Below are positions 4,164 to 27,132 of a stretch of 64,000 bases of DNA, in pieces; the stretch's first letter is position 1, and each line of letters begins with the position of its first letter. The notes beneath the pieces are model-generated. The model saw nothing but the letters and a program-made list of their open reading frames with translations. It ran no database searches and was not told the DNA's origin. Source of the DNA: Nitrosopumilus sp. (GTDB taxonomy: Archaea > Thermoproteota > Nitrososphaeria > Nitrososphaerales > Nitrosopumilaceae); NCBI GenBank assembly GCA_965214775.1, contig OZ243974.1, forward strand, positions 1,568,001-1,632,000. Direction: 5' to 3'. The translations under genes and the position numbers were made by a program.

Positions 4164-4494
4164 CTGCAGGGGTATCTGAATCAATACGGAGTCCACGGAT
4201 GCGCGGATTTTATGTGTTTGTGAGCGGGATCCGGACGGTATTGCATGAACGCCACGTTTGCTATAGCTAAGCGAAAAGTATCCCGGATCTGACGTCAGAG
4301 TGGGGTTGGACTCCCTGACATGATAAACCGTCATACCTTCATGGGAGATGATGATCCGAAATCAGAAACTGCAAATGCCCGGATTTTTCTGTACATTTGC
4401 CAAGTAACTTACAGATGACTCGTCATTTGCAAGTCATGAAGCCTTTCTGCCGGGACGCAGCAGACTGTCTGAATCAAAAACCAAATCACTACAA

Positions 4495-5049
4495 CAGTCT
4501 TCACAGAAATACCACATCAGATTGTCCCAGGCTAGAAACAACTCAGATACTCAGATGAGGTCGCCTGCAGATCCGCATGCTCTCTCCTGTACCGCCGCGA
4601 GTCGGTCACTTTTAGGAAGGCTGGATCCGCACGATACACCATGGTCATCACAAAGAGAAGGAAAAAACGGTCAGATAGGATCAGGGAGGAGGAGCTACCT
4701 GCACAAGAACGGCTCATCGGATTTGCAACCGGCGTGCCCGGAATAGATCCTGACGGGTACAGCCGCAGGTAGGGATCGAGACAGGATACCGGATGATAGA
4801 GAGCGCAAGGATTAGGATCCACAGCAAGAGCTAGGTCGCAAGGATGCCGTACTTTGTGTACTCTGGCAGTCTTCAATGCGTGGGTCATGGCAAACGCGAT
4901 GATGAGGTACATGACGGGGATCAGTACCGAGGATCCCCTGATCACCCAGCAGTGTCTCAAGGACGTGATCAAGCTCAACATAACAGACTGTAGGATGATG
5001 CCCCAGCCCCCTCCGCCAGCGCCTCCCTGAGTTACTTCTGGGAAGACTG
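4495..5049 (+). mobile_element. Internally deleted ISH3/IS4-like element (transposase C-terminal remnant)
   Basis: TIRs CAGTCTTCACAGAA / TTCTGGGAAGACTG; decayed frame YSRR*..IETGYRMIESARIRIHSKS. Confidence 0.75.
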
Positions 5050-5094
5050 CCAACACACAAATATATTTAACATGCATCTATTCCTAAAAATCAG

Positions 5095-5955
5095 ATGAGT
5101 CATGATTTAAATATCAACATCAACATTGATGAAATCCTAGGCGATGTACCTGCACAATACCTGCCAATTGATAAGCTGATTACGGGAAAGAATCAGGCCA
5201 GACAATCCAAAGTGAAGGTGAGTGAAGATTCAAAACTAGTTGATCAGATTAGAAAGGTCGGCGGACTGCTGCAACCAATTATCGTAAAAAAACTCAAAGA
5301 TGAAACCTATGAGATAATTGTAGGCCAAAGGCGTACTGGAGCATATCGTATACTAAGTAAGGAAGATGACAAATTCAAAAAAATCAAGGCATATGTAATA
5401 ACAAAGGATCTATCACAAGATGAGATTAAGGTCATATCGTTCATAGAAAACTATGGGCGTGATGACATGGACAAAGCGGATTATGTAAACGTCATAGAAT
5501 ATTTTTATCAAAAATATGGAAAGATAGCAGGTGCTGCCAAGGCTTTAGGAATATCACCAAATGATGCCAAAAAATACCTCACTCATGCAAGACTGAGTGA
5601 CAAAGTAAAGGAATGTATTGCTAGAAAAGAGTTCACTATAGACACTGCAATGAAGGCTCTAAAGGCGCTAGGTGACGACGAGGACTCTGTGGATGAGGAC
5701 ATGTTAATTGAAACGGCAAGAGAGTTGAAAAAACTCAAACCAGCTAAACGGAATAAGGTAGTCAAAAAGATGCAGAGTGGTACACCATTGAAAACTGCAA
5801 TAAAGATCCAGCAATCCACCACAACATTAAACATAGATATAACAGATGATCAGTTGGACAGACTTGAGACATATAAGAGCAAGTATGGTTACGAAAACAA
5901 AGAAGATGCCGCCACTGAAGCACTTGATGTGGCTTTACTGCAAGATTTGACGTAA
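5095..5955 (+). CDS. ParB/Srx-family protein (ParB N-domain, HTH, RHH-like C-terminus)
   Basis: GLLQPIIV..YEIIVGQRR (GxRR motif), SFIENYGRDDM, HTH IAGAAKALGISPNDAKKYL. Confidence 0.85.
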   Translation: MSHDLNININIDEILGDVPAQYLPIDKLITGKNQARQSKVKVSEDSKLVDQIRKVGGLLQPIIVKKLKDETYEIIVGQRRTGAYRILSKEDDKFKKIKAYVITKDLSQDEIKVISFIENYGRDDMDKADYVNVIEYFYQKYGKIAGAAKALGISPNDAKKYLTHARLSDKVKECIARKEFTIDTAMKALKALGDDEDSVDEDMLIETARELKKLKPAKRNKVVKKMQSGTPLKTAIKIQQSTTTLNIDITDDQLDRLETYKSKYGYENKEDAATEALDVALLQDLT

Positions 5956-5971
5956 AGGGAACACGGCCACA

Positions 5972-6706
5972 ATGGGTATTTTTAATGATCCAAAAAGACT
6001 GGCTAAATTATTAATGTGCTTCAAGGTTCACGAAAGTGCCCGTCCACTGTCCCCTATAGCGGTAGCAGAATGGCTAAAAGAGGCGGAGGATGAATTGGGC
6101 AATGCACAGGATGTCATGAAACGGGTGGGTATAGAGAAATTCATGTGGGATGGGTTCAGAACACTACTATCGATACATGGGGAGTTTAAAGATCAGGTGA
6201 AATGGGGGGCAAGTAACCCAAGGACGATGCAGATTGGAATGAGTGCGGCCAGAGTCATAGGCACTTTTAAGCCTGAAGACCAGAACATATTGATTGGATC
6301 CATGTGGGACTATGGAACACCGTTTGGGTATGAGGAACTCAGAAGGATAAAAGCATGCTACACATCAGAATCACTGACACTGCCAGAGGCAATCAAAAAG
6401 ATTATGAAGTCAGATCGCATACAGCGAACGGTTATCTTTATGTTCATTTCTGGACTGGATGAGAGTATAAGAGACAACCTTTCCAGAGAATCGGATAAAA
6501 GGGGCATTCCACTAAACGACCTGACCAAACAAATTCTATCGGAACATCTTCCAGAGAACTCAATCACGAGTGTAAAAATACTTCAAAACGCAATCAGAAT
6601 TGTATTTACGGAAAATGGAAAAAAAGAGTTTGACAAACTAATAAAGTCAGAATCGATCAACAAGAACGACATGGTGAATCACATGTTGAAAGCCGGGGGG
6701 TTTTAA
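5972..6706 (+). CDS. ParB-like central HTH domain protein lacking the N-terminal CTPase domain
   Basis: LSPIAVAEWLKEAEDELGNAQDVMKRVGI..LLSI..IGMSAARVI resembles the ParB middle domain; two RHH-like segments at the C-terminus. Confidence 0.5.
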   Translation: MGIFNDPKRLAKLLMCFKVHESARPLSPIAVAEWLKEAEDELGNAQDVMKRVGIEKFMWDGFRTLLSIHGEFKDQVKWGASNPRTMQIGMSAARVIGTFKPEDQNILIGSMWDYGTPFGYEELRRIKACYTSESLTLPEAIKKIMKSDRIQRTVIFMFISGLDESIRDNLSRESDKRGIPLNDLTKQILSEHLPENSITSVKILQNAIRIVFTENGKKEFDKLIKSESINKNDMVNHMLKAGGF

Positions 6707-6709
6707 ACA

Positions 6710-7768
6710 ATGTCTGATATAAACGCGTCAGTAACGCAGGACGGTGCTATATTATTGGGAAAACTGTTCTCATGTGATGGTCATGTGTATGGCAGAGGAC
6801 ATTTTGTATTTTCCCACATGCATTCGGATCATACAGACAAGCTGTCAAAATGCCTCCACAACGGAAAAATATACCTGTCAAAACCAACCCGTGATCTGTT
6901 AGAGGCAATCAATGATGAAAACTATGGAAGTGATCCACAAATGATAAAGAGAAGCCAGATAGAAATTTTGGATTTTGGACGTAAAAAAATCGTAAACCAT
7001 GACGACGTGACGGAAATATTGACACTGCATGAGTCAAACCATGTTCTTGGTGCAAGCCAGGTGGAGGTAATCACAAAGGAGGGACAAAAAATAGTGTATT
7101 CGGGAGATATCACCAATTCGGACCAACCGCTAAAGGATATAAACACGCTAGTTCTTGACGCCACACATGGTCATCCCCAATATTCCAAATACTCTGACAA
7201 AGAAAGTGTCGAAAGGCGATTCATAGATAAAATTGACGAGGTCATTCATAATGACAGGGCTCAGCCGGTGGTCATTCACGCACATCAGGGCAAGCTGCAG
7301 GAAATCATGTCCTTGATTTCAAATCATAGCGAGTTTAATGATTTTCCACTACACACATCCTCAAAAAGCATACGCATATCCAAGGTATACCAAAAATATG
7401 ACTTTAATATAAGAGATGATCTTGTAGATGAAAAGTCGGACGAGGCAGAGACGGCAAGAGAGAGCGGATGGCCATACATACAATGTACGTCACATTTTAG
7501 CAAAAAAACCTATGAGATCAATGGAAAGGCATATTCGATTTTTGTATATGATTCACTTCCAGACGGTTCCCAGATAAATGAAAACGAAAACAGTACGTCA
7601 TTTTCTACCACATCCCATGCGGATTTTGATAATATAATCAAATATGTTCAAAATGCCTGCCCTAAATTCATAATTGTAGACTCGACAAGAACTAACCAAT
7701 ACAAGTCGCTAGTCAAGGAACTTCGTGATAGGGGATTCAACGTACAATATCAGCCAAAAAGGAAATGA
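6710..7768 (+). CDS. MBL-fold beta-CASP nuclease
   Basis: SHMHSDH, SNHVLG, YSGD, LDAT and SHAD motifs. Confidence 0.8.
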   Translation: MSDINASVTQDGAILLGKLFSCDGHVYGRGHFVFSHMHSDHTDKLSKCLHNGKIYLSKPTRDLLEAINDENYGSDPQMIKRSQIEILDFGRKKIVNHDDVTEILTLHESNHVLGASQVEVITKEGQKIVYSGDITNSDQPLKDINTLVLDATHGHPQYSKYSDKESVERRFIDKIDEVIHNDRAQPVVIHAHQGKLQEIMSLISNHSEFNDFPLHTSSKSIRISKVYQKYDFNIRDDLVDEKSDEAETARESGWPYIQCTSHFSKKTYEINGKAYSIFVYDSLPDGSQINENENSTSFSTTSHADFDNIIKYVQNACPKFIIVDSTRTNQYKSLVKELRDRGFNVQYQPKRK

Positions 7769-7769
7769 T

Positions 7770-9035
7770 ATGAAACTCAATAATACACAAGTTGGGATAT
7801 TCTGGGATATTGTTTCATACGTCAAAAACAATAACATCAATTCTTCAAATATAGACACGATCAGTGATTCACCATCATTGAAGGCATGGGCAAACGTTCT
7901 AAAGGCACTGTGCAATTCTCAAAAAATCAGCATCACAAATCAGGATGCAAAATCCCATGTACTGGACATAATAGTACAATTCCTTAATACCGCTACTAGA
8001 AACAATCGCTCAAAATTGGCGAAAATATTAGATGATTTTATGTATTACTTGGAAAATGAAAAAAAATGGCTGTATTATTTTGTTCCAATATACAATCTTG
8101 ACTTTGATGGAAACGAGCTGGAAATTGATAAATTTATGAAGATTAGAAAGATATCAGATGAGCAGAAATCTTATCTGAGGGCAGAATATGAGGGATTTGC
8201 ACCAATCAGGGTGAATGTGGGCAAGATCCGACACATCTTTGTAGTTCGCGTAGAGAGGAACGATACAGATCCAGCAAGAACCATACGTAATAGGGTTGAT
8301 GTGGTTCTGAACAAGTTTAGATTGCTCAAATCAGGAGATATAGTTGCAGGCGGACTGTACTGTTTTGAGAAAAGCGAGAACTGGAACCCTTATGGTAAGA
8401 TAGACAAGATAAACCCAGAACCTACGGGCATAGTGTCATCTAACATGTATGTATTGACAGAATCCCACAGGGAGAAGTTTCTCAGTCTACTGTGTGTGAT
8501 AAACAACAGGTATCCGGTAGCAAAAGGTGGTGATTATTCAAAGAAATATGGTGATTATTTTGAAAAAACAATACAAAGATTCAACGAGTCGCTTTTAGAA
8601 CGAAATGTCAATTTTAGGATGGTGTACTTGGTACTTACACTTGAGGTGCTTCTCGTATCAAGTCCCGGAGACAATACAAGTAAGATATCGCAGAGAACTG
8701 CGCTGTTCATAGGTAGAAACGATGATGAAAAAAAGAAAATATGGGAACACATGAGACAGTTCTATAATTTTCGCAGCGGCCAGATACATGAGTATGTTGA
8801 ACGAACCATAAAGGTGGATTCCAAGACAATTCCGATCAAAAAGGCAACTGCCATGTTAGAGACATGGACAAGGAGGTCAATCCTGCAGATGATATTTTTC
8901 AGTCAGGAAAAAGATACGCTCCAGTTTGACAAGGTGGAACTGTGTAAGAGTATAGAGACATCAATGTTTGATAGGACACTCAACTCTAGGTTTTCCACAC
9001 TGCATAAAAAAATACTAAATCAGATCAATTTTTGA
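7770..9035 (+). CDS. ApeA-like HEPN domain protein
   Basis: C-terminal LEVLL..KISQRTALFIG..YNFRSGQIH (RxxxxH); start ATG 7770 just after the upstream stop. Confidence 0.7.
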   Translation: MKLNNTQVGIFWDIVSYVKNNNINSSNIDTISDSPSLKAWANVLKALCNSQKISITNQDAKSHVLDIIVQFLNTATRNNRSKLAKILDDFMYYLENEKKWLYYFVPIYNLDFDGNELEIDKFMKIRKISDEQKSYLRAEYEGFAPIRVNVGKIRHIFVVRVERNDTDPARTIRNRVDVVLNKFRLLKSGDIVAGGLYCFEKSENWNPYGKIDKINPEPTGIVSSNMYVLTESHREKFLSLLCVINNRYPVAKGGDYSKKYGDYFEKTIQRFNESLLERNVNFRMVYLVLTLEVLLVSSPGDNTSKISQRTALFIGRNDDEKKKIWEHMRQFYNFRSGQIHEYVERTIKVDSKTIPIKKATAMLETWTRRSILQMIFFSQEKDTLQFDKVELCKSIETSMFDRTLNSRFSTLHKKILNQINF

Positions 9036-9959
9036 GGTCGCATGGTTTGCCACAATCAATGTTTTGTGACTGACGGATGTAAGCCGGGCATTCGTGATTT
9101 TTATCATGGTGCCTGGTTGTAGTTTCTTCTCCATCGAATGTTCTAGTATGAGGGGTGTTGATTTCAAAGTTTTGTCTACAAGAACAAACTTGTTTACCGA
9201 CTGTTTTGATTTGTTCTTTTCTAGCATCCCGTAGATGTTGAATTTTTTACTCTTTGCACAAAAGAACTTTGCCTGTACTATTTTGTCAAAAAAGTCCTTG
9301 TGTTCATGCTTTATTTTAACAGCACTTCCGTTGACCCAACGATGCAAAAGATTACAGGTTCTTGGATCTGCATTCTTGTTTCCGACCTTGCAGGTGTCCT
9401 CATAAGCACAATTCATACAGGGATTGTCCATCAATGACTCAAACTGGGAATTTATGTGGGGCTTCTCAATGTATTCAGTCAGCATCCAGGCATTTTCACT
9501 ATCAGAATATTTTATCAAACCATCATGTTCAAGTTTTAAAAGATCTAATCCCTTGAATTTGTCAGTCAATATTTTTCCTGAAACCGGCTGATTCTCACAC
9601 AAGAACTTTAGTGCGTATTGTTCCATGTGCATGGTGAAATGACTTCTAATATTGGCATTGCCGGTGATCAGTTTGAGACATACCCTACATCGCATCTCGT
9701 TTTTGTCCCTCTGTGCCTTTACCACCCCTGACATATTATCAAACTCCTCAAACTCATCATTTGACTCGTCATCTGACATGGTATTGATGACATCAAACTC
9801 ATCATTTGACTCGTCATCTGACATGGTATTGATGACATCAAACTCATCATTTGACTCGTCATCTGACATGGTATTGATGACATCAAACTCATCATTTGAC
9901 TCGTCATCTGACATGGTATTGATGACATCAAACTCATCATTTGACTCGTCATCTGACAT
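9015..9959 (-). CDS. Multidomain protein: acidic repeats, C2H2 zinc finger, wHTH, TFEbeta/C34-like Cys cluster, OB-fold
   Basis: MSDDESNDEF repeated five times; CRVC..SHFTMH; PCMNCAYEDTC..DPRTCNLLHRW; C-terminal VLVDKT..LQPGTMIKITNA. Confidence 0.55.
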   Translation of the reverse strand: MSDDESNDEFDVINTMSDDESNDEFDVINTMSDDESNDEFDVINTMSDDESNDEFDVINTMSDDESNDEFEEFDNMSGVVKAQRDKNEMRCRVCLKLITGNANIRSHFTMHMEQYALKFLCENQPVSGKILTDKFKGLDLLKLEHDGLIKYSDSENAWMLTEYIEKPHINSQFESLMDNPCMNCAYEDTCKVGNKNADPRTCNLLHRWVNGSAVKIKHEHKDFFDKIVQAKFFCAKSKKFNIYGMLEKNKSKQSVNKFVLVDKTLKSTPLILEHSMEKKLQPGTMIKITNARLTSVSHKTLIVANHATSKIDLI

Positions 9960-9971
9960 GGTATTGATGAC
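9748..9971. repeat. Perfect 45-bp tandem repeat, about 5 copies, coding
   Basis: Unit recurs at 9751, 9796, 9841, 9886 and 9931. Confidence 0.95.
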
Positions 9972-10003: not shown

Positions 10004-10081
10004 AGACCTTATGCGTATTTGCCAAAAATGACGTAAAAGCTGCCTAACTTTTTTGATCTGAACCGATTACGCAAAAGGTCT
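10004..10081. mobile_element. About 80-bp MITE related to the IS5-family elements in this window
   Basis: AGACCTTATGCGTA...TACGCAAAAGGTCT with AAT on both sides; an extra solo TIR at 9987-10002. Confidence 0.8.
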
Positions 10082-11300
10082 AATATTTTTCAAGCTGATT
10101 GTTCTTCGACATGCTGATCTTTGCGATATTCTTTATCACTGATATGATTTCATCTGTCGCAAACTTAATTTCCTCTTCTGTGTTAAATCTGCCACATCCG
10201 ATCCTAATTGATTCATGTGCTTGCTCTGATGTCAATCCAAGTGCTAGGAGGACGTGCGAGGGCTCTACTGCTTGGGTCGTGCATGCAGAGCCTGCAGAGA
10301 TGGCCAGCCTCTTGGATACGGAGTTGATGATGGCCTTGCCCTCGATTCCGTCAAATCTGACATTGAGGTTGTGTGCAAGCCTATTCGTGGGATGCCCGTT
10401 TTGAATCCCGCCAATCTCCGCAAACCTGTCCAGCATCTGCCTTGTCCAGCTCCTGAACCTGTTGTTTTCCTGCTCCATCTCGCTGTTGGCAATCTCCAAG
10501 GCCTTTGCAAAGCCCACGATTCCGGGAACGTTTAGGGTGCCAGAGCGGATGCCTCTCTCCTGCCCACCTCCATGCATTATCGAATCCAGTCTTACGCGCG
10601 GCATGACTCCTCTTGCATAAAGCGCGCCAATTCCCTTGGGTCCGTAAATCTTGTGGGAGGAAAACGACATCAGATCAACATTGAGCCTTTGCACATCGAT
10701 ATCCATGTGGCCGACGGCCTGGGCCGCATCTGTATGAAACAGCACGTTATTGTCGTGCGCTATCTTGCCGATCTCTGCAATGTCTGCAATCGTTCCAATC
10801 TCATTATTTGCAAACATCACCGAAATCAGGACTGTCTTGTCCGTTATCGCGTCATTTACTGCCTTGGGATCAATCATGCCAAATTCGTCAACGGGCAGGT
10901 ATGTCACATCCATGCCCTGGTCCTCAAGACGTCTTGCCGTATCTAGGACTGCCTTGTGTTCTGTAACGCACGTGATTAGGTGGTTCCCACGATCCGCATT
11001 CTTTGTCATGACGCCGCACAGTGCAAGGTTGTCTGATTCCGTGGCACCTGACGTGAATATGATCTCATCCATGTGTGCGTTAATTGCACGGCCGATCTTC
11101 TCACGGGATGCCTGGACAACCTGTGATGCGTCATGGCCATACGAGTGATCCAGGCTTGACGCATTCCCAAACACCTGCGTAAAATACGGGATCATCTCGT
11201 CTAGGACGCGCGGGTCCACCGGCGTAGTTGCATGCGAGTCCAGATAGACGGGTTGACCGGATTTGGCCTCGGAGAAAGACTGCATTTTATCCGTCCGCAA
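10080..11300 (-). CDS. dndA: Cysteine desulfurase DndA/IscS
   Basis: YLDSHATTP, HTDAAQ, SSHKIYGPKG, SAGSACT; last gene of the dnd operon. Confidence 0.9.
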   Translation of the reverse strand: MRTDKMQSFSEAKSGQPVYLDSHATTPVDPRVLDEMIPYFTQVFGNASSLDHSYGHDASQVVQASREKIGRAINAHMDEIIFTSGATESDNLALCGVMTKNADRGNHLITCVTEHKAVLDTARRLEDQGMDVTYLPVDEFGMIDPKAVNDAITDKTVLISVMFANNEIGTIADIAEIGKIAHDNNVLFHTDAAQAVGHMDIDVQRLNVDLMSFSSHKIYGPKGIGALYARGVMPRVRLDSIMHGGGQERGIRSGTLNVPGIVGFAKALEIANSEMEQENNRFRSWTRQMLDRFAEIGGIQNGHPTNRLAHNLNVRFDGIEGKAIINSVSKRLAISAGSACTTQAVEPSHVLLALGLTSEQAHESIRIGCGRFNTEEEIKFATDEIISVIKNIAKISMSKNNQLEKY

Positions 11301-11682
11301 GTCGGAACTTGCCGGGATTCATCTCCCTGACGAATCCGTATACGTCAGAGAGGCCGTCGATCCTCTGTTTTAGCGATATGGCCCCCCGGTTGAGATGGGC
11401 CCTGGTCATCTCTCCGAGATACGTCTCCGGATCCAGTCCGTCCTGGTTTAGGCGGTTGATCATGAGTGCAAGGTACATGTTTTCATCTCCGGCAAACAGT
11501 CTTGCCGGTTCAAACTCGCTGCCCTTCTTGTTGTATTCGTCAGGATTGGGAATTCCCCTCTGCTTTATGGACAGGCACAGGGACAGGCGGGCCCAGGCCT
11601 CCGGTTCCACGGCAGTGCTGTACCTGAGCATGCCAAACAGATGAGTCGTGCGCGAGCTTGCCCTGATGTTCTCAAACTGCAA
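11287..11682 (-). CDS. dndE: DNA sulfur modification protein DndE
   Basis: Lies between dndD and dndA; ARLSLCLSI, GSEF and RAHLNRGA motifs; TTG start right after the dndD stop. Confidence 0.8.
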   Translation of the reverse strand: MQFENIRASSRTTHLFGMLRYSTAVEPEAWARLSLCLSIKQRGIPNPDEYNKKGSEFEPARLFAGDENMYLALMINRLNQDGLDPETYLGEMTRAHLNRGAISLKQRIDGLSDVYGFVREMNPGKFRLADG

Positions 11683-11683
11683 C

Positions 11684-13696
11684 CTAGCTGCCTCCCCTGC
11701 TCCCAAAGTATCCGTCGTTTACAACGCTCGTGTCGCTACTGGGATCATACTGGATAAGCATGGCCTGTGAGACATGCGGCCTTATCATCTCATAGTACGA
11801 GTCCACGACCTCGGTGTTTGTGGAAAATATGATTATCTGGTGTGATGCCTCTGGGTAAAAGTTGCGGATCAGGTTCTCCCTGTGCTCCACATCCAGCCTG
11901 GCAAGCGGTGTATCCACTATCAGTGGCAGCGGGCGTCCTGACGTCTTGGCCAGCCCCCATACGATTGCAGTCACGTACAGCTGGAGCTCGCCCTGCGACA
12001 GGGTGTCCCTAGAGATCTCGTCCTCCCTGCTGTATAGCGTGATCCTGTATGTCTGGGGATCAATTGAGACTGACGTGATGAGCCTTGACTTATGGAAGCA
12101 CCTTTTGATCCCCTCCAGTATGTTGGATTCCAGCAGCGTGATCTTTTTTGCCCGCAGCCTGGCAGAGTACTCCTCTAGAGCATCCTGTATCCTCGGGGCC
12201 AGCTCCAGTCCCAACTGGTTTCGGTGGCTGGATCTTTTCGCTGCAAGGTGCTTTCGTATCTTGCTGTTTAGCAGGACTATTTTGGATTTTTCCTGCGCCT
12301 CTAGCACCTCCAGCGTATGGCATTCCTGCTCCATCTCCCCTATCTCAAGGGTGATCTCCTTGATACTCGAATACAGGGGACCCACCTCGTCTTGCTGTGG
12401 GGCGATGTCCAACTGCGCAGATATCCCGTCTAGCCGGTCTGCATATTGTTTTTGACTCTTGTGATATACAGACAAGTGCTCGTGTTCCTGATCCAGTATC
12501 CTGTCAATCCTTTGCCTCATTGCCGCCATCTCGGACAGCGAAAAGTCAAAGGTGAGGCGTCTCTTGTCAGACAGCGAGCTTGTCCTTGCATCTGCAATGT
12601 CCCTGAGCCTTTTTACCAGCGCCTTTTTGGTCTCCGGGTCGTCCAGCTCTAGGTGCGCCTCAAACTCTCCTATCATATGGTCATAGGCTGCCCTCACCGT
12701 ATCGCCTGAAAGGTTGGATTTTATGCTGTCCTCGTCCTCTTGGAGTTTTTCTCTGACCTGCCTTATCTGATCTGGCACTATTGCAAGCGGCAGGTCTTTT
12801 TTGATCATGTCTCTTATTTGGGATTCCACAAAATTGAGGGACTTTGAAATCTCATCTCTCTCATTTACCAGCCTTTTCCGGTCTTTTGCATGGCTGCCAC
12901 CCGCCTTGAAGAACTGCTCCTCTTTTCCATCCAGTTCCTTTTTCTTGCGGGAGATGTCGTCGGTCAAAAATGTGTGCTTTTGCTGCATATCCTCCAGCCT
13001 TCTTTCGGCCTCGTCCTTCTCCCTGTTCATCTCCTCGATCCTTGCAAGTACTTCCTTGTCCTCCTCGCCCGAGTTTCGCAGTATGTGCGTGCCGATGTCA
13101 TCCCGGAGCCGGTCGGATATGTCAAGTCCCAGCAGGCTGTCAAAGGACGACTTGATGTAAAGGTGCTCATCGCCTTCCTCTACAATGTCCTTGATTCTTT
13201 CCCCGTCAAAGAAGAACATGCCTGCCACCGCCCTAGGGATCATCTGGTTTATCATCATCTGGATCTGGGAGTCACCCACGGCCTCCACCCTGACGTATCC
13301 CTTGCCTGCATCAGACTGCTTGTACATGGCCAGAAACTCGTCAATACGGCCGTCATTGTTCTGCCAGTTTCGGGTTATCTTGTACTGGAGGATCCTTCCA
13401 TTCTGCGCATATTCAAACTCCAGCGATACGGAGGCCTCCCCGGCCTGGGTCTTTTTGTGCTTGTGCCTGTGAAAGAGCCGTCTGATCTTCTGGTTATACT
13501 GTTTTTTTGTCATCTTTTCATCCATACTGCTCTGTCCGTACAGGCACAGGGGGATCGCCTCAAAGAGGGTAGACTTGCCGGCGCCGTTGGTCCCGCCATA
13601 CAGAACAATGGGCCTCTCAGACGTGGTAGGAAACTCGAACTCGTTGTGCCCCCCGTAGGCGCCAACGTCATCAAGTATCAGCCTAGTTAAACGCAT
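11684..13696 (-). CDS. dndD: DNA sulfur modification SMC-like ATPase DndD
   Basis: Walker A GTNGAGKST, FFFDGE, coiled coil, LSQGE, IVDTPLARLD. Confidence 0.93.
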   Translation of the reverse strand: MRLTRLILDDVGAYGGHNEFEFPTTSERPIVLYGGTNGAGKSTLFEAIPLCLYGQSSMDEKMTKKQYNQKIRRLFHRHKHKKTQAGEASVSLEFEYAQNGRILQYKITRNWQNNDGRIDEFLAMYKQSDAGKGYVRVEAVGDSQIQMMINQMIPRAVAGMFFFDGERIKDIVEEGDEHLYIKSSFDSLLGLDISDRLRDDIGTHILRNSGEEDKEVLARIEEMNREKDEAERRLEDMQQKHTFLTDDISRKKKELDGKEEQFFKAGGSHAKDRKRLVNERDEISKSLNFVESQIRDMIKKDLPLAIVPDQIRQVREKLQEDEDSIKSNLSGDTVRAAYDHMIGEFEAHLELDDPETKKALVKRLRDIADARTSSLSDKRRLTFDFSLSEMAAMRQRIDRILDQEHEHLSVYHKSQKQYADRLDGISAQLDIAPQQDEVGPLYSSIKEITLEIGEMEQECHTLEVLEAQEKSKIVLLNSKIRKHLAAKRSSHRNQLGLELAPRIQDALEEYSARLRAKKITLLESNILEGIKRCFHKSRLITSVSIDPQTYRITLYSREDEISRDTLSQGELQLYVTAIVWGLAKTSGRPLPLIVDTPLARLDVEHRENLIRNFYPEASHQIIIFSTNTEVVDSYYEMIRPHVSQAMLIQYDPSSDTSVVNDGYFGSRGGS

Positions 13697-15107
13697 TTGG
13701 CCTCACCCTTTCCTCCGCATCCCTGTGCTCGAACAGCTCTGCCCTTATCTCGTCGATGTCTTCTCTCCACTCCTTTGCAAGCTCCTTTTTGATCCTCTCA
13801 AATATCTTGGAGTGCGTCGAGCCCGTCTGCAGCTCCACCTCGGCATTTAGCAGGCTGCTTACGATCTTGTACGGAACCTTGTGCTTGGTGCAGACCTGCT
13901 CAAGCAGTGCCTGCTCGTCGTGACCAAATCCCCCCGTGTCGTCAGTGACGGATTCCAGCTGGATTCCCGTTATATCATGGTAAATCCCGTATGCCGTGTT
14001 CTGCCAGTCGCCGTTTTCCATTCTCCAGATGCGCTGTATCTCGTGTATCTCCTCTTCGGAAATCAGGACCATGTCAGGATCATGCTTCTGTATCTTGACC
14101 TGGCCGTTTAGCAGCTTTTGTAGATACTCCTTTCTAAAGTCAAGCGTGTATGGGCCCGGCGTATAGTCGGATCCGTCGTTTTTCAGATCCACCCGACCGT
14201 TTCTGCGCGTTATCTGGCGTACCTTGGGCCATGTCTCGGGATTCTGTGTAAGCTTTAGCTCGTGGCGCAGCTCGGCTAGTGGCTCCATCCATTCCTGACC
14301 GTTCTCAATCATGCTGTCAAGCGACTTTTGCTTGTCCACCACGGTGCAAGTCCAGCAGCCAAACCTGCCGCTGCCGCACGACGGCGTGCTGGTATCTACC
14401 ACGAGGGGGCACTCTGAGGCGTTGGCGTCCTGGTACAGGGCCAGAAGATCCCTGTTGTTGTCCCCCCATGGATTCCTGTTTTGCAGCAGATAGTTCCAGA
14501 CGTCGTCGGTCTCAAAGTCCACCAGGGGGGTATACACGTACGTCTGGGCAAATTTCTTGTGGTGACTCAAAACGCTGTTTTCAATCTCCAGCAGGTTCAT
14601 GCTCTGCTGCCGGGTAGAGCTCTCGCTTTTGCGGGTTCCCAGCAGCACTATGACCTCGCCGTACTCGGATACCTTGTTTTTGATAAAGCGGTCGGCGTTT
14701 GCAATCTTGAGCATGTCGGTACACCACCTAAACATTGAGGTGGGCGCTGGGTATCCGAGGCCGAGAATCCTGACCCAGAACGTGTCGGTAATGGGGGGTC
14801 TCAGGAGGTTGGTCGATATCGGAATGGATGACTTTTTTGCGGCCTTTTCCATCTTGTCCAGCGACGTGGTTATGCGCTCTACGATCTGTGGCGACTCTAC
14901 CAAGGTATCAGAGGATACGACATAGATCTTTTTATCCAGTTTTTCTGCAGGTAGTGCGGATAGAGCCCCCCAGACAAGCTGCACCATGCAGGTCGAGTCC
15001 TTTCCCCCGCTGAATCCCAAAACCCACGGGCGGGAATCGTTGAGGTATACAGTGCGAATCTCCTCGTATATCTTCTCAAGTGGTTTTGAGTCAAACACGG
15101 AAGTCAT
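13683..15107 (-). CDS. dndC: DNA phosphorothioation sulfurtransferase DndC
   Basis: PWVLGFSGGKDS, FRWCT, GTRKSES, ECPLVVD..CGSGRFGCWTCTVV. Confidence 0.95.
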   Translation of the reverse strand: MTSVFDSKPLEKIYEEIRTVYLNDSRPWVLGFSGGKDSTCMVQLVWGALSALPAEKLDKKIYVVSSDTLVESPQIVERITTSLDKMEKAAKKSSIPISTNLLRPPITDTFWVRILGLGYPAPTSMFRWCTDMLKIANADRFIKNKVSEYGEVIVLLGTRKSESSTRQQSMNLLEIENSVLSHHKKFAQTYVYTPLVDFETDDVWNYLLQNRNPWGDNNRDLLALYQDANASECPLVVDTSTPSCGSGRFGCWTCTVVDKQKSLDSMIENGQEWMEPLAELRHELKLTQNPETWPKVRQITRRNGRVDLKNDGSDYTPGPYTLDFRKEYLQKLLNGQVKIQKHDPDMVLISEEEIHEIQRIWRMENGDWQNTAYGIYHDITGIQLESVTDDTGGFGHDEQALLEQVCTKHKVPYKIVSSLLNAEVELQTGSTHSKIFERIKKELAKEWREDIDEIRAELFEHRDAEERVRPNAFN

Positions 15108-16186
15108 TTCTCATACTGCCCCAGTGCCTTTGGTATCTTAGCTCCGCATTCCCTAAGTATGGCGCATGCTCCCAGCGCGATCCCGATGGTCGTACGAACC
15201 ATCTTTTTTCCTTGTATGAGGTTGCCGTCCCACATGGGGTTTGTGCGTGACCAGTCGATTTTTGACAGGGGTCGGAGCCTTCTTTTCCAGCTGTCCGGAT
15301 ACTGCTTGATTATCTCCTTTCCTGCCATTCCAAGCGAGTTCATGCAGTTCGTATGTGCGTTGACATAGTTGGCCCTCAGCTCATCCGGGGATATGTCGCC
15401 CTTGATCAGCATTTGCCACTCTGGAAGATTCTCAGATACAGTCTTCCAAAATTCCAGGATTGTCTCCTTTTGCTCCTTGCTGGGACGTCGTACTGATTCC
15501 TTGCCAAGGAGCTTCCTGGTGGCATCGGATATCCCTCCAAGTGTAAAGACCTCCTTGGCATGTCTTCCTATGGTTGTTTTTTCAAGCTCAACCCTGTCTC
15601 GGAATATCTCTAGGCTCTCTGTCATTTCCACAACGAACTGGGAATATTTATCACGGTTATCGTACAAAATGTTAAGTGATTTTGATGGCTTTACTGCGTT
15701 TTTGTTCAGGTCTGCAAACATCTGCTGGGAGCGTTTTAGCCCCGAGTCCTCAAAGAACACCACCGATATCGACTCGCCTCCAAGCTCGGGCCTTTCCTTG
15801 AGTGCCTCTTCTATTGCCTTGCGCCTGTGCTGGCCGTCGTTTATGAGCAGTCGCGACTCCATGTCAATGAGCAATTTGCCCATCTTGCCGTCAGGACCCA
15901 GATGCTGTGCAGGAATGAACTTCATGTTTCCGTCAACTGATGCCGTTAGCGACGAAAAGATGTACTCGTCTGGATTGCTCAGAATATAGTCCTTGAGGGC
16001 TGGAATCCTAGATTCTCGCAGCGTCCTTTGGGCCCGTATCTTTGCAGGAATCTCATGTTCATTGAATATGAATAGTTTCGGGATTGTCTTCATCGGGCAC
16101 ACTGCTACATAGTATACGCGGTTGGCCTGGACTCCGCGAATGGCATCAAAACTGTAATTTACCGAGCCTGCCTCAGATTCGCTCAT
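15104..16186 (-). CDS. dndB: DndB (DGQHR domain)
   Basis: RAQRTL, INDGQHRR, QQMFADLN. Confidence 0.93.
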   Translation of the reverse strand: MSESEAGSVNYSFDAIRGVQANRVYYVAVCPMKTIPKLFIFNEHEIPAKIRAQRTLRESRIPALKDYILSNPDEYIFSSLTASVDGNMKFIPAQHLGPDGKMGKLLIDMESRLLINDGQHRRKAIEEALKERPELGGESISVVFFEDSGLKRSQQMFADLNKNAVKPSKSLNILYDNRDKYSQFVVEMTESLEIFRDRVELEKTTIGRHAKEVFTLGGISDATRKLLGKESVRRPSKEQKETILEFWKTVSENLPEWQMLIKGDISPDELRANYVNAHTNCMNSLGMAGKEIIKQYPDSWKRRLRPLSKIDWSRTNPMWDGNLIQGKKMVRTTIGIALGACAILRECGAKIPKALGQYEK

Positions 16187-16254
16187 AAATTATATAAAAA
16201 ATGGACGTATAAAAACCCTTTTTTGCAGTATCTTTTATGATTTTGGCAGTATGT

Positions 16255-16458
16255 TTATAGCAGTTTTTTGAGCGTGTCTATATCCTTCTTGCCTAGCTTT
16301 ATCGAAAATACTGCCGCATCAGGGTGTTTGGCGCCCTTTGCAATGGGGTGAAAGACTATCTTGATCTCGCTGCCTTCCTTTTCGATATCCACAGGCCTGC
16401 CGCCGATTACCTCTTTGACCATGGATTTGGATAATCCTTGTTCCTTATAGCCTTTCAA
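16255..16458 (-). CDS. Small hypothetical protein upstream of dndB
   Basis: 67-aa ORF with protein-like composition, co-oriented with the dnd operon. Confidence 0.5.
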   Translation of the reverse strand: MKGYKEQGLSKSMVKEVIGGRPVDIEKEGSEIKIVFHPIAKGAKHPDAAVFSIKLGKKDIDTLKKLL

Positions 16459-16759
16459 TTGTGGTTCAAGATTAGATCACATCCCCTTTGCTGACCAAGT
16501 ATGAAAATCACGACTGCTTGCAAGTTTGTGCTAGCCGTTTAAGGATGGGCTAATACTAATCACTAGTAAAGTCACCTCCCCTCAACCAATCCGGTATGAA
16601 TTCACATGCAGCTGTGATTTTCGCGCCTAGCCAACAAGGGGGACGTGGTCTCAATCCTAATTCATTGGAATTTTTGAAAAACCATCATTGTACAACAAAT
16701 CAAACTTGGCAGCAGTTATGCCGATAATCGCATATGTGATGTGAGACATCAAATCAATT

Positions 16760-18628
16760 CTATGATGCTCCCAATTCGAGTAGTTTTGTCTGAACACTGT
16801 CCTCCGTTTGTTTTATGATGAACTTTCTAGAATCGAGTATGGGTGGCAACAATCTGGCGCCTTTCTGTTTTAGTACATACATGATGTCGTATGGATTTGG
16901 CATGTCACCTTCATGTCCGCCTTCCTTTATCTTTTTTAGAAGACTCTCAGGCCACGTTTCATGCCGATTCAGATTAAAACTTTTCATGAACACATCATAA
17001 GCGGCTTCGGCAATGCTTAAAAATAGGTCCGGTGTGGGATCATTTTTTTTAAGATTTGAGAATTTGTCTATCATTTTGTCTTTTATTTGCCGTCTGTTTT
17101 TATCGTCAATCCCAATCATGGATTCGTAGATGAATCTTAGAATGTAATACTTTACAATGTCCTTACTGATGATGCCTTTTTTCCTCGATATCTCATCTGA
17201 TTGGTTGCTACTTAATTCCTTACACCATCTTCGATGCAATGCATCAAGCATTTGCATAAAGATGTGCGGTACGATAAGCTCCTCAATCTTTCTATTTTTG
17301 AAGATTTTGTAATAATAGCTATCGTCACTTGCCACAGAAAACAAAACTTTGTCGGACATCATTGCCTCATTGGGATCTAATGAATACGCACAATAGGCTC
17401 TTGCAACTGCACTCTTATCCAGTATGCGTCTGCTAGTCACACGAGACCGTGTGGATTTTTTGGCAGCTCCAAACCCCTTCGACTGTCGTTCAAAATAAAA
17501 ATTATTGAACTTGTTTTTACACTGTAGCATTAATTCTGTCATCTCTGGATAATTTGTCACCAGATCTGCCGGTTTGATTGGGTTTTGGGTATTTGTTGCC
17601 TCGCTGATTCGATTACGTTCTATGTCGTCTACTGTTTCATGTATGGTTAGCAGCAAAAACACATCATCTATGGGGTAAGTAGAATTCTCTAACGTGTATG
17701 TCGTCTGTCTTCCGTTTACTACTTTGAAGTTGTCTACCTTGTATGTTCGAGAATCTTCTGTGGCACTAAAATTAGTACAAGTGGCAGTAATGCCGTTGTT
17801 TAACTTCCAGAAATCGCTTCTTGCGAGCTTATCTTGAAGCGTATTAAGAATAGCCTTGTGAGTGGGTGCTGAGCTGCCAAGCGTTTGTCTAGGATTTTCC
17901 AAAAATATCATCTCCTTGTAATCCTTAGTGATTTTAACCAGATCTTTAGCATTTATGTGTCCTATGAGTGATTGTTTTTTTGTTATCTCAGATGTTCGTG
18001 TTATTATATCTCCATCAAACTTGATTTTTAGCGGCGGAGTGTGAGGAATGGTCATGCGTGATAAAATTCCATCTAGATCCAGAATCTCAAGATCTATGTT
18101 GGGATCGTTTCCAAGTCTTTCTTTTTTCCATTTGGGATCATTAACGAGTTCTTGAGCTTGTTCGTTTAGTCTTCCTGTCACTGCAAAGATCATCCTTTTC
18201 CTAATACGCGGATATTGTCTTTCCATCATGATGAATTCTGTGGATTTTTGCTTGAATGTCAGATTTGCCTGCTTTGGACAATCTGTGAGATAGGCTAGCG
18301 TACTTACAAATGATTCGATCTCTTCTCTGTTTACAATATGATTTAGATCTTCGCTAAATTTTGTCTGGATCCAGCATATGTATTGTTCGGTGACATCCCC
18401 GTTGTCGTCAGCATGAAAAATATCAATTCCATAATCGTTTTTCCCACCAATCGACACTACTTCGTCAATTTTGCCTTCATCTGAAATACCTAGTATGTTT
18501 TGACATATCCATCTTGGAAAGGCATCATATTTTGCTACACCTGTTTGCTCACAGATATGTTGGATCTGCTCATTGAACTGGGTTTTGCTGGCGTCTGATG
18601 TCATTTCATTAAAAGGATGTATTTGCAT
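16760..18628 (-). CDS. AIPR family protein with N-terminal restriction-endonuclease-like domain
   Basis: GGKNDYGIDIF..IQTKF; ENPR, FWKLNNGIT, VVNGRQTT, ATNTQN. Confidence 0.85.
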   Translation of the reverse strand: MQIHPFNEMTSDASKTQFNEQIQHICEQTGVAKYDAFPRWICQNILGISDEGKIDEVVSIGGKNDYGIDIFHADDNGDVTEQYICWIQTKFSEDLNHIVNREEIESFVSTLAYLTDCPKQANLTFKQKSTEFIMMERQYPRIRKRMIFAVTGRLNEQAQELVNDPKWKKERLGNDPNIDLEILDLDGILSRMTIPHTPPLKIKFDGDIITRTSEITKKQSLIGHINAKDLVKITKDYKEMIFLENPRQTLGSSAPTHKAILNTLQDKLARSDFWKLNNGITATCTNFSATEDSRTYKVDNFKVVNGRQTTYTLENSTYPIDDVFLLLTIHETVDDIERNRISEATNTQNPIKPADLVTNYPEMTELMLQCKNKFNNFYFERQSKGFGAAKKSTRSRVTSRRILDKSAVARAYCAYSLDPNEAMMSDKVLFSVASDDSYYYKIFKNRKIEELIVPHIFMQMLDALHRRWCKELSSNQSDEISRKKGIISKDIVKYYILRFIYESMIGIDDKNRRQIKDKMIDKFSNLKKNDPTPDLFLSIAEAAYDVFMKSFNLNRHETWPESLLKKIKEGGHEGDMPNPYDIMYVLKQKGARLLPPILDSRKFIIKQTEDSVQTKLLELGAS

Positions 18629-19274: not shown

Positions 19275-20819
19275 AGATCTTATGCGTAATCGACCGGATC
19301 AAAATATTCCGACTGTGGGTCGGCCATACATGCAAAGATGACGGCATCACACAACGTGCACAAGGGCGACACAGTCCGCGTACAGTGCAGCTACGGATCA
19401 TTCCATCTGAGAAAAACTGCAGTGTCGTGCGGTATCGTGTGGCGCCGCAATGCGCTCCGTATCGCGGGATCAGAACCCAAGCCCGGGCTTCTTGCGCCGC
19501 CTGTCCCACAGTATCTTAAAGTTGACAAGCCCGGTGATCACATCCAGCTCCCGGTCAAACTCCCCGGCAGTCCCGTCATACGGGATGCACATCAGCCTGT
19601 ACTGCCTGATGTGACCTGTGGCGTGCTCCACTATGATCCTCCTGCCGCTTATCCTCTTGTTCTGTGCGCGTTGCTTCCTCGTAAGCTTGCCGCCCTTGGG
19701 CTTTTTGTGGGGTTGCTTGAGTATAACGCCGGGATACACCTTCTTGATTCCAAGATATCCCAGATCCGTGAGCAGTTTTACCATCTGGCCCCTGGTATGC
19801 CTTTTGTTGCTGCGCATCCTGGCAGACAGCAGTCCAAGATCCGGGAGATTGTCCTTTATCATGCTGATGTCGTGCGTGCTTCCGGGAGCCGATGCGCTCT
19901 TGTGTATGAGCAGGCCGTCATTGGCAGTCATCATCTGGACGTTGCGCGTAAAGCTCTTCTTCTTGCCCGAGTACGCCTCCTTTCTTGAATCCTTGTTTGA
20001 GGGGCGCCGTATGTCCATGTGCGTGCCGTCGACCATCACGATCAGGTTGGGGACTATTCTCTTGATCTCCTCGATCGTACGGGCGTTTCGTATCCTTTTT
20101 TCGACCTTGGATGCAGTTGGCAGTATCTCGGCAAATATCGTGTTGGCAAACCTGAGGTACCTGCATACCGTGCTCTGGTCTATCCCAAAGAATGCGGCAA
20201 GCTGCTCCTGTGTCGGGGCCCCTGTCTTGCGCATCAGCGACAGCAGTATGGCGTAGCGGTATGGCAGCTTGCATCTGTTGCCGGGAACCTCGTCCCCGTC
20301 CTCTGAAAACAGGGGGAGCTCGGGGTGCTTTCGGGCCTGTCTTATGAACCGGTCGGATATGCAGTCAAACTGGGCGCGGTCCACGGATGTCGTGGCACGC
20401 AACAGCTTGCCACCGATTATGTCCTCGAGTACCTCGCGCCTGTGAAAGAACACGGCGTTCTCTGTTGTGCGCCTGTTGTCATCCTGGGAGGTGGGCCACA
20501 TCTTGCGTTCGGTGTCTGCCTGCCGGCTCACCTGCTTTATCTTCTTCTGATCCTTCTCATGCATTTTCTTGTACTGCGTATTCTCCATCTTGTACTGTAT
20601 GAGATTCATTTTCAGCTGTCGTATTGTCTGGGTCTTGGATTCTGCCATACCGCTACTGCGGGAATGAATCCCGGATCTAACTCAACCGACTGAAAATAGT
20701 TGCGTATTTGATCAAATATGTTGGACACCGCGGCGCCTCACGGTACCGCTTGCCGGCTTGACATGCATGATCGGCTCTCAAAGATAATATTTCGATCCTG
20801 ACGATTACGCATAAGGTCT
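19275..20819 (-). mobile_element. IS5-family (DDE_Tnp_4-type) insertion sequence, copy A
   Basis: TIRs AGATCTTATGCGTAATCG / CGATTACGCATAAGGTCT. Confidence 0.88.
19470..20648 (-). CDS. IS5-family transposase
   Basis: VDGT, YSGKKK, GSTHD, DLGYLG, RIIVEH. Confidence 0.9.
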   Translation of the reverse strand: MAESKTQTIRQLKMNLIQYKMENTQYKKMHEKDQKKIKQVSRQADTERKMWPTSQDDNRRTTENAVFFHRREVLEDIIGGKLLRATTSVDRAQFDCISDRFIRQARKHPELPLFSEDGDEVPGNRCKLPYRYAILLSLMRKTGAPTQEQLAAFFGIDQSTVCRYLRFANTIFAEILPTASKVEKRIRNARTIEEIKRIVPNLIVMVDGTHMDIRRPSNKDSRKEAYSGKKKSFTRNVQMMTANDGLLIHKSASAPGSTHDISMIKDNLPDLGLLSARMRSNKRHTRGQMVKLLTDLGYLGIKKVYPGVILKQPHKKPKGGKLTRKQRAQNKRISGRRIIVEHATGHIRQYRLMCIPYDGTAGEFDRELDVITGLVNFKILWDRRRKKPGLGF

Positions 20820-26456: not shown

Positions 26457-27132
26457 CTTTCTTATCCCCATTATTGTTGGAATATAAAAAAACTTCACTG
26501 TCATTTAAATCGAATGAGATTTTCAGTCGATTTCGTGTATCTGTATATCTTGGTATCTGAATAATTTGTCCAGAATTCATAAATGCAGATACGTCAAACC
26601 CAAATCTTTCCAGATTGCCTACTGACAATACAGTTTCTGCGACATCGCTAATAGATGCAAGTAAACGCTTAGCTACAGCTTCGCATGGTAAGCGGTTGAA
26701 ATTAATATTTCTGACCAGGTGTTTTGTGATTAACTCTGCGTTAGGATCTCCAATAGTTAAAAATCCTGAATCATTCCCATATGAAGAAAATTTATCTCCT
26801 GAAATACGGATCGTTTTAAGTTCAAAGTTGCAGCCGTCTTTAATGACTAAAAATCCTTCAACGTGCCTTGGTTCTTGGAATTCTGCATATGTAGCTTTAA
26901 CAAAGTCTTGTACTGTTGGAATTATGTTAATGGAATCTACATTTTTGGTTGCTAGGGAGGCAAAAAGAGCTTTAGCACTTGTTCCATTTCCTGCCAGAGT
27001 TAGAAAAAATTCTTCGTTTCTTGGTAAATAGTATTTTTGGACTTCATTTCCTTGTACTGTATTGTCACTTTCTTTTCTGTCAGATATAATTACAAACCCA
27101 TCGTTTCCTCTTGCAAAAATAAGTAACGTCAA
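26449..27132 (-). CDS. Proteasome-beta/HslV-like Ntn-hydrolase fold protein
   Basis: N-terminus M-TLLIFARGNDGFVIISDRK matches the Thr1..DGVV..D-R/K pattern; TLAG; TIGD. Confidence 0.6.
   Translation of the reverse strand: MTLLIFARGNDGFVIISDRKESDNTVQGNEVQKYYLPRNEEFFLTLAGNGTSAKALFASLATKNVDSINIIPTVQDFVKATYAEFQEPRHVEGFLVIKDGCNFELKTIRISGDKFSSYGNDSGFLTIGDPNAELITKHLVRNINFNRLPCEAVAKRLLASISDVAETVLSVGNLERFGFDVSAFMNSGQIIQIPRYTDTRNRLKISFDLNDSEVFLYSNNNGDKKDG

Follow-up and report, generated by a model that had tools for sequence, protein, structure and literature searches.

A ParB/Noc-like protein, its paralogue and a beta-CASP nuclease recur beside dnd clusters of Nitrosopumilaceae: a candidate phosphorothioate-linked effector module

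Several kinds of effectors are known to operate alongside the phosphorothioate (PT) modification of DNA. In SspE and DndI, PT is sensed by nucleoside triphosphatase (NTPase) domains of the ParB superfamily, the DUF262 domains (PMC11662687, PMC12065111), and this sensing modulates the NTPase and frees the enzyme from self DNA (PMC11662687, PMC13251355). The Pbe proteins comprise a helicase/PLD-like PbeA, an SMC-like PbeC and the small PbeB and PbeD (PMC6459918). The nucleases reported near Dnd genes are of the HKD, HNH, REase, URI, HEPN and PIN types, and HEPN and other nucleases in dnd neighbourhoods have been proposed as alternative restriction or back-up effectors (Krishnan et al. 2024, PMC10853773). 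For many dnd clusters a restriction partner is not known, and what such 'solitary' PT systems do is a long-standing question (PMC10853773, PMC6459918). Here we describe four genes, g1-g4, that lie beside a dnd cluster in a complete 2.83-Mb Nitrosopumilus genome (GC content 0.471), within a stretch of 64,000 nucleotides (G000:C1:1568001-1632000; hereafter the window, from whose first letter positions are counted unless a genome or another locus is named). We propose, with a probability of roughly 0.55, that g1-g4 form the effector or sensor half of a PT-linked defence system, with the adjacent dndBCDEA cluster as its modification half. They would thus be a new candidate PT-linked effector module of predicted function, and a new variant of PT-based defence.

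The genes g1-g4 are four open reading frames (ORFs) of the + strand at 5095-9035, separated by gaps of 16, 3 and 1 nt, with a GC content of 0.393 as against 0.518 for dndA-B. They converge on an AT-rich gene of the - strand, g5, behind which lies an intact dndA-E-D-C-B cluster recognized by Pfam, NCBIfam and PADLOC models (Table 1). This agrees with an earlier note on the same DNA, made from the sequence alone, which had described four closely packed AT-rich genes converging on dndBCDEA and had added that the window holds no ParA: none of the CbiA/ParA-family matches that might supply a partner for g1 falls within the window, all six in the genome being elsewhere. As to known defence families, g1, g2, g4 and g5 are unmatched by any PADLOC model and g3 has a sole match, to a candidate family, at 0.0039.

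By its sequence features g1 is a genuine ParB/Noc-type protein. It combines an N-terminal ParB/Srx NTP-binding domain, carrying the GQRR and EN..R..D signatures, with a central helix-turn-helix (HTH) and a C-terminal ribbon-helix-helix (RHH)-like tail, the latter read as a beta-alpha-alpha pattern over the final ~45 residues. A family profile of 12 sequences recovered Noc from the PDB at 3.2e-21 and ParB/Spo0J at 1e-15 to 1e-17; the alignment to Noc 7ol9 spans profile positions 7-218, i.e. both the N-domain and the central HTH. The box II residues G77, Q78, R79 and R80 and the glutamate E118 are invariant in 12/12 homologues, and N119 is present in at least 90% of them. The full ParB with GxRR of the earlier note is therefore upheld, and its motifs suggest that g1 is probably an NTP switch, most plausibly one using cytidine triphosphate (CTP).

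The second gene, g2, finds no family in Pfam, NCBIfam or PADLOC. A profile-profile comparison with hhalign, however, places its residues 16-183 on residues 115-270 of the g1 family (93.5% probability, E 2.4e-7). In an AlphaFold2 (AF2) model with a predicted local distance difference test score (pLDDT) of 91.2, residues 1-132 resemble the DNA-binding domains of Spo0J, ParB and KorB (Z 9.0, 9.0 and 8.3), and residues 154-244 resemble tandem-RHH proteins such as AvtR (Z 7.3), a relaxosome chain (Z 7.0) and single-chain Arc (Z 6.6), with a weaker match to archaeal DndE 7x4e (Z 5.4). Foldseek searches with the same model reached an E of only about 0.03, with ParB proteins in all the top rows. Together, the profile alignment and the model indicate a paralogue of g1 with only the HTH part of ParB followed by RHH-like tails, as had been noted from the sequence.

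The remaining two genes code for the predicted nucleases. The HxHxDH motif of g3 reads HMHSDH at residue 36; H36, D40, H41, H111, H153, H190 and H303 are invariant in 31 sequences, and H38 and D133 are retained in at least 90%. Its profile recovers CPSF-73 from the PDB at 1.9e-13 over positions 34-242 and SNM1A at 5e-5, along with aCPSF/FttA, IntS11 and Apollo, in keeping with the metallo-beta-lactamase (MBL)/beta-CASP nuclease suggested earlier. The C-terminal part lies outside the reach of these alignments, including the motif C position; going by the spacing after H303 (in 'SHAD') in the CPSF pattern, the near-invariant D324 would occupy it. CPSF-73 has a His at motif C, whereas enzymes of the SNM1 family have a Val (PMC7458816). 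The start of g4 is an ATG that lies 45 nt into the GTG ORF listed as 7725-9035. Its AF2 model (pLDDT 91, predicted template modelling score 0.87) has an N-terminal helical, a central alpha/beta and a C-terminal helical domain. Residues 252-386 align by VIA-align with the HEPN protein 4nqf over 119 residues at a root mean square deviation of 3.5 and a Z of 8.3, moderate for a helical bundle; 13 of the 16 top rows of the search against representative PDB structures are HEPN proteins, with Csm6, a HEPN-MNT toxin and AbiV following 4nqf. The Rx4H motif is R335-SGQI-H340 (RSGQIH at 335), with H340 invariant and R335 present in at least 90% of 20 sequences. The predicted RxxxxH HEPN protein is thus borne out by motif and modelled fold. 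Curated HEPN sequence models of Pfam, NCBIfam and PADLOC do not match g4, and Foldseek of its model against the PDB gave nothing meaningful; an Atlas feature search placed HEPN_Apea nearest (0.84), which serves as a lead only. Its profile has no relatives in the general genome-contig set or in viral contigs.

Word-indexed searches of 5.8e9 proteins returned 12 homologues of g4, 32 of g3 and three of g2, and eight of the 12 g4 homologues share the size of their longest contig with a g3 homologue. A full hidden Markov model search of metagenomes with the g2 profile gave 753 cluster representatives at E<=1e-3, 63 of which reach 1e-30, so that the g2 family is much larger than the word-indexed search implies. 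Reading neighbourhoods by tblastn with the window proteins and by ORF calls, we found the triad g1-g2-g3 in 22 places, distributed over Nitrosopumilaceae genomes, one metagenome contig and two contigs of bacterial metagenome-assembled genomes (MAGs). Besides the window, these are the metagenome contig L002, four places from a genome-contig scan (L004-L007), seven from 301 sampled genomes of the family to which G003 belongs (L022-L027, L029), eight from a 301-genome sample of the window's class (L042-L049) and one from the class of the bacterial MAG G004 (L072). The two 301-genome samples overlap, with identical coordinates appearing under two handles. Two fragments with g4 and its downstream gene (L001, L003) stand outside the triad count. 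In the class sample, a g3 match at E<=1e-25 is seen in 12 of 180 genomes of the window's family and in none of 120 from 14 other families. The pattern-based scan of genome contigs with the g3 profile gave three Nitrosopumilaceae carriers and one bacterial contig, as against at least 15 Nitrosopumilaceae carriers in the genome samples; as it misses known carriers, it is a poor guide to the range. Two further hits, L008 and L009, were set aside as unrelated MBL genes, being 25-26% identical to g3 with no g1 or g2 nearby.

The earlier note had set beforehand, as its test, whether these genes occur together elsewhere and associate with dnd. The triad recurs in 21 places beyond the window. Flanks can be judged in 21 of the 22 places, counting the window but not L007, a contig of only 3.9 kb, and 17 of these 21 have a dnd cluster within 10 kb. 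The arrangement varies: nine triads directly follow dndA in the same direction (L002, L005, L006, L023, L024, L026, L029, L042, L045), with gaps of 36-157 nt where measured, six converge with dnd (the window, L022, L025, L027, L043, L049) and two diverge from it (L044, L048). The bacterial L072 has the order SNF2-ParB-ParB_HTH-g3 converging on a lone gene for a DndC-like PAPS-reductase. Protein identities go down to 25-40%. The linkage of the g1-g2-g3 core to dnd is thus strong and withstands rearrangement. In a second subtype a diverged g1-g2-g3, with or without g4, is preceded by an SNF2 helicase and a gene of ~266 amino acids (L023, L026, L044, L045, L048, L049); L072 shares the helicase. 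One genome (L023 and L024, G301:C1:1648001-1686000) has two complete dndBCDEA clusters in tandem, ~16 kb apart; the triad that follows one of them is of the SNF2 subtype, and the triad that follows the other is of the window subtype. Homologues of g4 were seen in the window and in L001-L003, L005, L006, L007, L022-L024, L026, L029, L042, L043 and L045, and were undetected in L004, L027, L044, L046-L049 and L072.

The association extends to whole genomes. Among 301 sampled Nitrosopumilaceae genomes, dndC (E<=1e-50, 46 genomes positive) is found in 8 of 9 carriers of g3 (E<=1e-30) and in 38 of the 292 others (Fisher p=1.4e-6, to be taken as indicative only, since the g3 threshold was chosen after the list had been seen and related genomes are not independent). 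The ninth carrier, G178, has a dndA at its contig edge adjoining the module. Not counted among the nine are two fragment matches (G100, G036), and four genomes (G235, G073, G080, G119) whose matches near 1e-11 lie in ORFs of 420-447 amino acids were rejected as carriers of other MBL genes. Neighbourhood conservation and co-occurrence with dnd genes, two of the checks that the earlier note had recommended, both came out in its favour.

A further line of evidence is the distribution of Pbe. PbeA/C genes are near 2 of 17 module-bearing dnd loci as compared to 13 of 20 module-less ones (Fisher p=0.002, or p=0.0002 when either partner, Pbe or GmrSD/DndI-like, is counted), a comparison that is semi-quantitative because the two sets of regions were fetched around different centres. 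Within the 20 kb retrieved for each module-less locus, 13 show PbeA and/or PbeC, four only a GmrSD/DndI-like gene and three neither. The two module-bearing loci with Pbe are L006 and L028, the latter lying beside the second dnd cluster of G092, and those with GmrSD-like genes are L029 and L049. In one genome with two dnd clusters, Pbe adjoins one and the module the other. This near-exclusivity is in line with a role of the module as an alternative Dnd partner.

The same distribution bears on the proposal that the module is an accessory of the modification side, with g1 and g2 as KorB/DndB-like regulators or loaders for PT placement and the nucleases processing nicks, PT damage or dnd transcripts. 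The tandem RHH at the end of g2 is indeed DndE-like, KorB, a member of the ParB family, represses transcription (8qa8), a regulatory role is reported for DndB, which also belongs to the ParB superfamily (PMC10853773), and the module often appears to be co-transcribed with dndA. Yet the full module-bearing dnd clusters already have a dndB, about 37 of the 46 dndC-positive genomes of the family do without the module, and the make-up of the module is typical of effectors, with two or three nucleases whose active sites are intact, a HEPN domain and, in the second subtype, an SNF2 helicase; its near-exclusion of Pbe suits a partner role as well. We therefore consider such an accessory role unlikely.

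Whether the dnd cluster of the window is otherwise 'orphan', as first described, has a divided answer. At the locus the description stands, and the DndF, DndG and DndH models (TIGR03236, TIGR03237, TIGR03238) have no match in the genome, though they were also silent in control genomes and their sensitivity is unproven. It does not stand genome-wide: beyond the window, there is a solitary gene for a PbeA-like helicase of 743 amino acids (C1:570915-573146, 1.8e-197) and an 'Orf5'/DndI-like DUF262-DUF1524 gene (C1:1034909-1037032, 2.8e-188) beside a type II restriction-modification pair. As regards PbeC, its model matches only DndD in this genome and tblastn with a true PbeC gives nothing. The dnd cassette itself (10180-16524) is 95.8% identical in DNA, over 6.3 kb, to positions 8468-14813 of L056 in G083, another member of the family, where it has different flanks, including an AIPR gene, split by a transposase, on the other side of dnd. 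This suggests that the dnd cassette has been recently mobile and moves as a unit.

The reading of g1-g4 as the effector or sensor half of a Dnd-based system finds support in the conservation of the catalytic motifs, namely GQRR and the glutamate of EN..R..D in g1, HxHxDH in g3 and Rx4H in g4, but several observations weigh against it. One triad (L004) has only a dndB remnant beside it, with dndC on a different contig of its genome (G001), and the 10 kb around two diverged triads (L046, L047) are free of dnd, although each of these genomes has a second, dnd-linked triad. The range covers one archaeal family and two bacterial MAG contigs, one of them only 3.9 kb, which could be mis-binned; as the carriers come mostly from that one family, the statistics overstate independence. 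Occurring in about two thirds of the places, g4 is frequent but not core, so that of the four-gene module initially claimed the g1-g2-g3 part recurs and g4 is absent from about a third; in L005 it is, moreover, split by a DDE_Tnp_4 element (11026-13620). Pbe or GmrSD-type genes stand alongside the module in 4 of 17 loci, and in the window's own genome the PbeA-like or the DndI-like gene could be the actual PT reader. G083 has no g3 match, and its cassette thus implies that dnd does without the module and that the juxtaposition in the window is recent. Finally, the 12-point difference in GC content between module (0.39) and dnd (0.52) cuts both ways: it sets the two apart, and in favour of the reading it indicates that the pairing was assembled locally rather than inherited as a single block.

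Much of this would suit a PT-independent defence or abortive-infection module, with a ParB-type DNA sensor and nuclease and RNase effectors, that sits beside dnd as shared cargo of an island: the solitary triads, the near-identical dnd cassette without a module, the unequal GC content and the mobile, defence-rich surroundings with AIPR/AbiU and OloA-like genes, transposases and dispersed repeats are all as expected. Shared cargo predicts varied neighbours, however, whereas it is dnd specifically that is seen in 17/21 places, nine of them operon-like after dndA; the link survives three gene orders and divergence down to 25% identity, and the module tends to exclude Pbe. Such independence from PT thus also appears improbable.

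If g1-g4 are instead the partner of Dnd, the following mechanism may be envisaged. Dnd would mark host DNA with PT, while g1, as an NTP, probably CTP, switch with its HTH and RHH tail, would load on DNA together with g2 and scan it. Much as in SspE and DndI, whose NTPase domains are of the ParB superfamily, nucleotide turnover would change on contact with PT such that g1/g2 let go of self DNA. On PT-free invader DNA they would persist and recruit or license g3. Where present, g4, along with an RNase J-like enzyme encoded nearby, may supply RNA-level or back-up effectors. The DNA-sliding sensor and the PT dependence suggested in the earlier note would both have their place in this scheme. A more radical version, which we regard as decidedly unlikely, would have the ParB-type CTP switch and the DndE-like RHH paralogue read the PT state, whereupon on unmarked DNA the CPSF/FttA-like beta-CASP protein, the HEPN RNase and the RNase J-like enzyme target transcripts as they are being made, or end transcription, rather than cut invader DNA. 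If true, such transcript-directed action would define a third, mechanistically distinct class of Dnd partners and a major alternative to Pbe in marine ammonia-oxidising archaea.

Two genes near the module are possible accessories. The first, g5, combines acidic repeats with a C2H2-like zinc finger and a Cys-rich segment and has no family match in Pfam, NCBIfam or PADLOC; its position is downstream of dndA and convergent with g4. Among the compared loci a homologue was found only in L001 (tblastn, 34% identity, E 7e-50), likewise convergent after g4, and g5 is outside the conserved core. Its N-terminal acidic MSDDESNDEFDVINT repeats are encoded by a perfect 45-bp tandem repeat at 9748-9971 (5.0 copies, 100% identity), which extends 12 nt past the listed start codon of g5, so that the real start and the copy number may vary. 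The second codes for an RNase J-like beta-CASP protein and in the window lies 2.5 kb upstream of the module on the opposite strand. Homologues directly follow g4 in L002, L003 and L029 (33-35% identity) and one is nearby in L026 (57%), making it a recurrent neighbour and possible accessory. The genome has two paralogues of it, 85% and ~50% identical, at 1776979-1778568 and 273971-275471, the latter aligned in two overlapping pieces and perhaps frameshifted.

Table 1. Features of the window, with the models or comparisons on which each assignment is based.
Feature	Coordinates	Strand	Basis
g1, ParB/Noc-like, 286 aa	5095-5955	+	Pfam ParB_N 2.2e-11 (above cut-off), TIGR00180 2.5e-15
g2, g1 paralogue lacking the N-terminal NTPase domain, 244 aa	5972-6706	+	hhalign, AF2 model
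g3, compact beta-CASP/metallo-beta-lactamase nuclease, 352 aa	6710-7768	+	TIGR04122 1.2e-11 (below cut-off), Pfam Lactamase_B_2 0.0029
g4, three domains, C-terminal HEPN-like, 421 aa	7770-9035	+	AF2 model, VIA-align
g5, possible accessory, 314 aa	9015-9959	-	acidic 15-aa repeats, C2H2-like zinc finger, Cys-rich segment
dndBCDEA phosphorothioate modification cluster	10080-16186	-	Pfam, NCBIfam, PADLOC
dndA	10080-11300	-	PADLOC DndA 2.9e-162; NCBIfam below cut-off
dndE	11287-11706	-	PADLOC DndE 3.3e-34; NCBIfam below cut-off
dndD	11684-13696	-	PADLOC DndD 2.9e-158; NCBIfam above cut-off
dndC	13683-15107	-	PADLOC DndC 1.7e-181; NCBIfam above cut-off
dndB	15104-16186	-	PADLOC DndB 5.2e-136; NCBIfam above cut-off
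RNase J-like beta-CASP protein, 498 aa	1140-2636	-	Pfam Lactamase_B_2 and RMMBL; TIGR00649 3.7e-18
NucS-type endonuclease protein, 429 aa	3045-4334	-	C-terminal domain 1.9e-15; N-terminal 300 residues without family
Non-coding spacer 5' of g1	4335-5094	.	mosaic of three dispersed repeat families
AIPR/AbiU-like protein	16760-18628	-	Pfam AIPR 3.3e-33, PADLOC AbiU 1.4e-32; weak Mrr_cat_2 N-terminus
Transposase/integrase genes (two DDE_Tnp_4, one rve, one IS110 family)	19470-20648, 22796-24031, 28914-29750, 58201-59331		
758-aa protein	24228-26504	-	weak PADLOC OloA match 1.9e-13
HTH and IrrE/M78 peptidase protein	56971-58158	-	RmrA/CapP models, down to 8e-17

The surroundings of the module are those of a mobile, defence-rich island, as four transposase/integrase genes mark the first half of the window. 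The AIPR/AbiU-like gene is immediately upstream of dndB and has a 62% paralogue at genome positions 602855-604729; in L056, L067 and L069, too, dnd has an AIPR homologue at its flank. The OloA-like and IrrE/M78 genes may be further defence genes, and the gene with the NucS C-terminal domain shows no conservation with the module in any locus compared. Upstream of g1, the spacer contains a ~425-bp unit with about seven genome copies at 83-86% identity and units of ~130 bp and ~85 bp, each with many copies; of the 117 genome matches given by blastn with four intergenic queries, all those among the matches listed come from this spacer. An ORF of 181 amino acids inside its largest repeat unit (4532-5077, - strand) is probably spurious and not a gene.

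Such surroundings raise the prospect that the module serves a mobile element for maintenance or addiction, in which case the ParB would serve partition or silencing and the nucleases would act as a toxin-like stabiliser of the dnd island. A ParB-family protein, foreign AT-rich composition and repeat elements at the flanks would all be in line with this, as would the insertion sequences found in g4 in L005 and in g1 in L025 (a DDE_3 element at 13852-15994), which are expected of costly genes and fit a costly or decaying module. The lack of a ParA in the window, the chromosomal position of the loci, the failure of the g4 profile to find relatives in viral contigs and the absence of integrase, replication or conjugation genes accompanying the module in the loci examined argue to the contrary, and we deem this explanation very unlikely.

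The module offers a concrete and testable candidate for a partner of Dnd, with a composition unlike that of DndFGH, DndI, Pbe or Ssp. Should this reading of g1-g4 be correct, a true ParB/Noc-type NTP switch of the kind known from chromosome segregation would be found in an immune system, coupled to beta-CASP and HEPN nucleases. The Nitrosopumilaceae are globally abundant nitrifiers whose virus defence is poorly known. The module lies beside dnd in many marine ammonia-oxidising archaea, and the g2 family alone counts 753 metagenome cluster representatives. The claim of the earlier note that the module is undescribed has held so far: there is no record of it in PADLOC or Pfam, and we found no description in the literature of a ParB + beta-CASP (+ HEPN) partner of Dnd, though the supplementary tables of PMC10853773 and the study of a marine thaumarchaeon with dnd by Ahlgren et al. 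2017 may mention these neighbours. The main text of Krishnan et al., as available, is without the terms 'lactamase', 'MBL', 'metallo', 'CASP' and 'CPSF' and uses 'ParB' for DndB only (PMC10853773), and the available text of papers on thaumarchaeal dnd mentions dndA-E only (PMC6790972, PMC7848895, PMC12780485).

Among the known systems, the PT-sensing nickases DndI, of DndBCDE(A), and SspE, of SspABCD, are close to the module, as they share the linkage to PT modification and the combination of a ParB-superfamily NTP-binding domain with a nuclease. Their DUF262 domain is, however, fused to a DUF1524 HNH domain, whereas the module has a canonical ParB_N + HTH protein of the Noc/Spo0J type and a separate beta-CASP nuclease, to which it adds a ParB-HTH/RHH paralogue and often a HEPN protein; there is no DUF262 or DUF1524 in g1-g4, and the PADLOC SspE and Orf5 models are unmatched. 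PbeABCD is comparable as a four-gene cassette next to archaeal dnd and is the usual dnd neighbour in this family, as seen in the module-less loci, but it has no homology to g1-g4 and the two cassettes are mostly mutually exclusive. The PADLOC Pbe models match none of g1-g5, while the same models detect PbeA (7.6e-176) and PbeC (6.6e-86) in L006. DndFGH, the Dnd restriction partner with large ATPase/helicase subunits, is likewise without homology to g1-g4. Finally, g1 resembles the CTP clamps ParB, Noc and KorB in its box II GxRR, EN..R and HTH, with a Noc profile match of E 3e-21, but differs from them in having an RHH-like C-terminal domain and no ParA partner and in being set among nucleases beside a DNA-modification operon.

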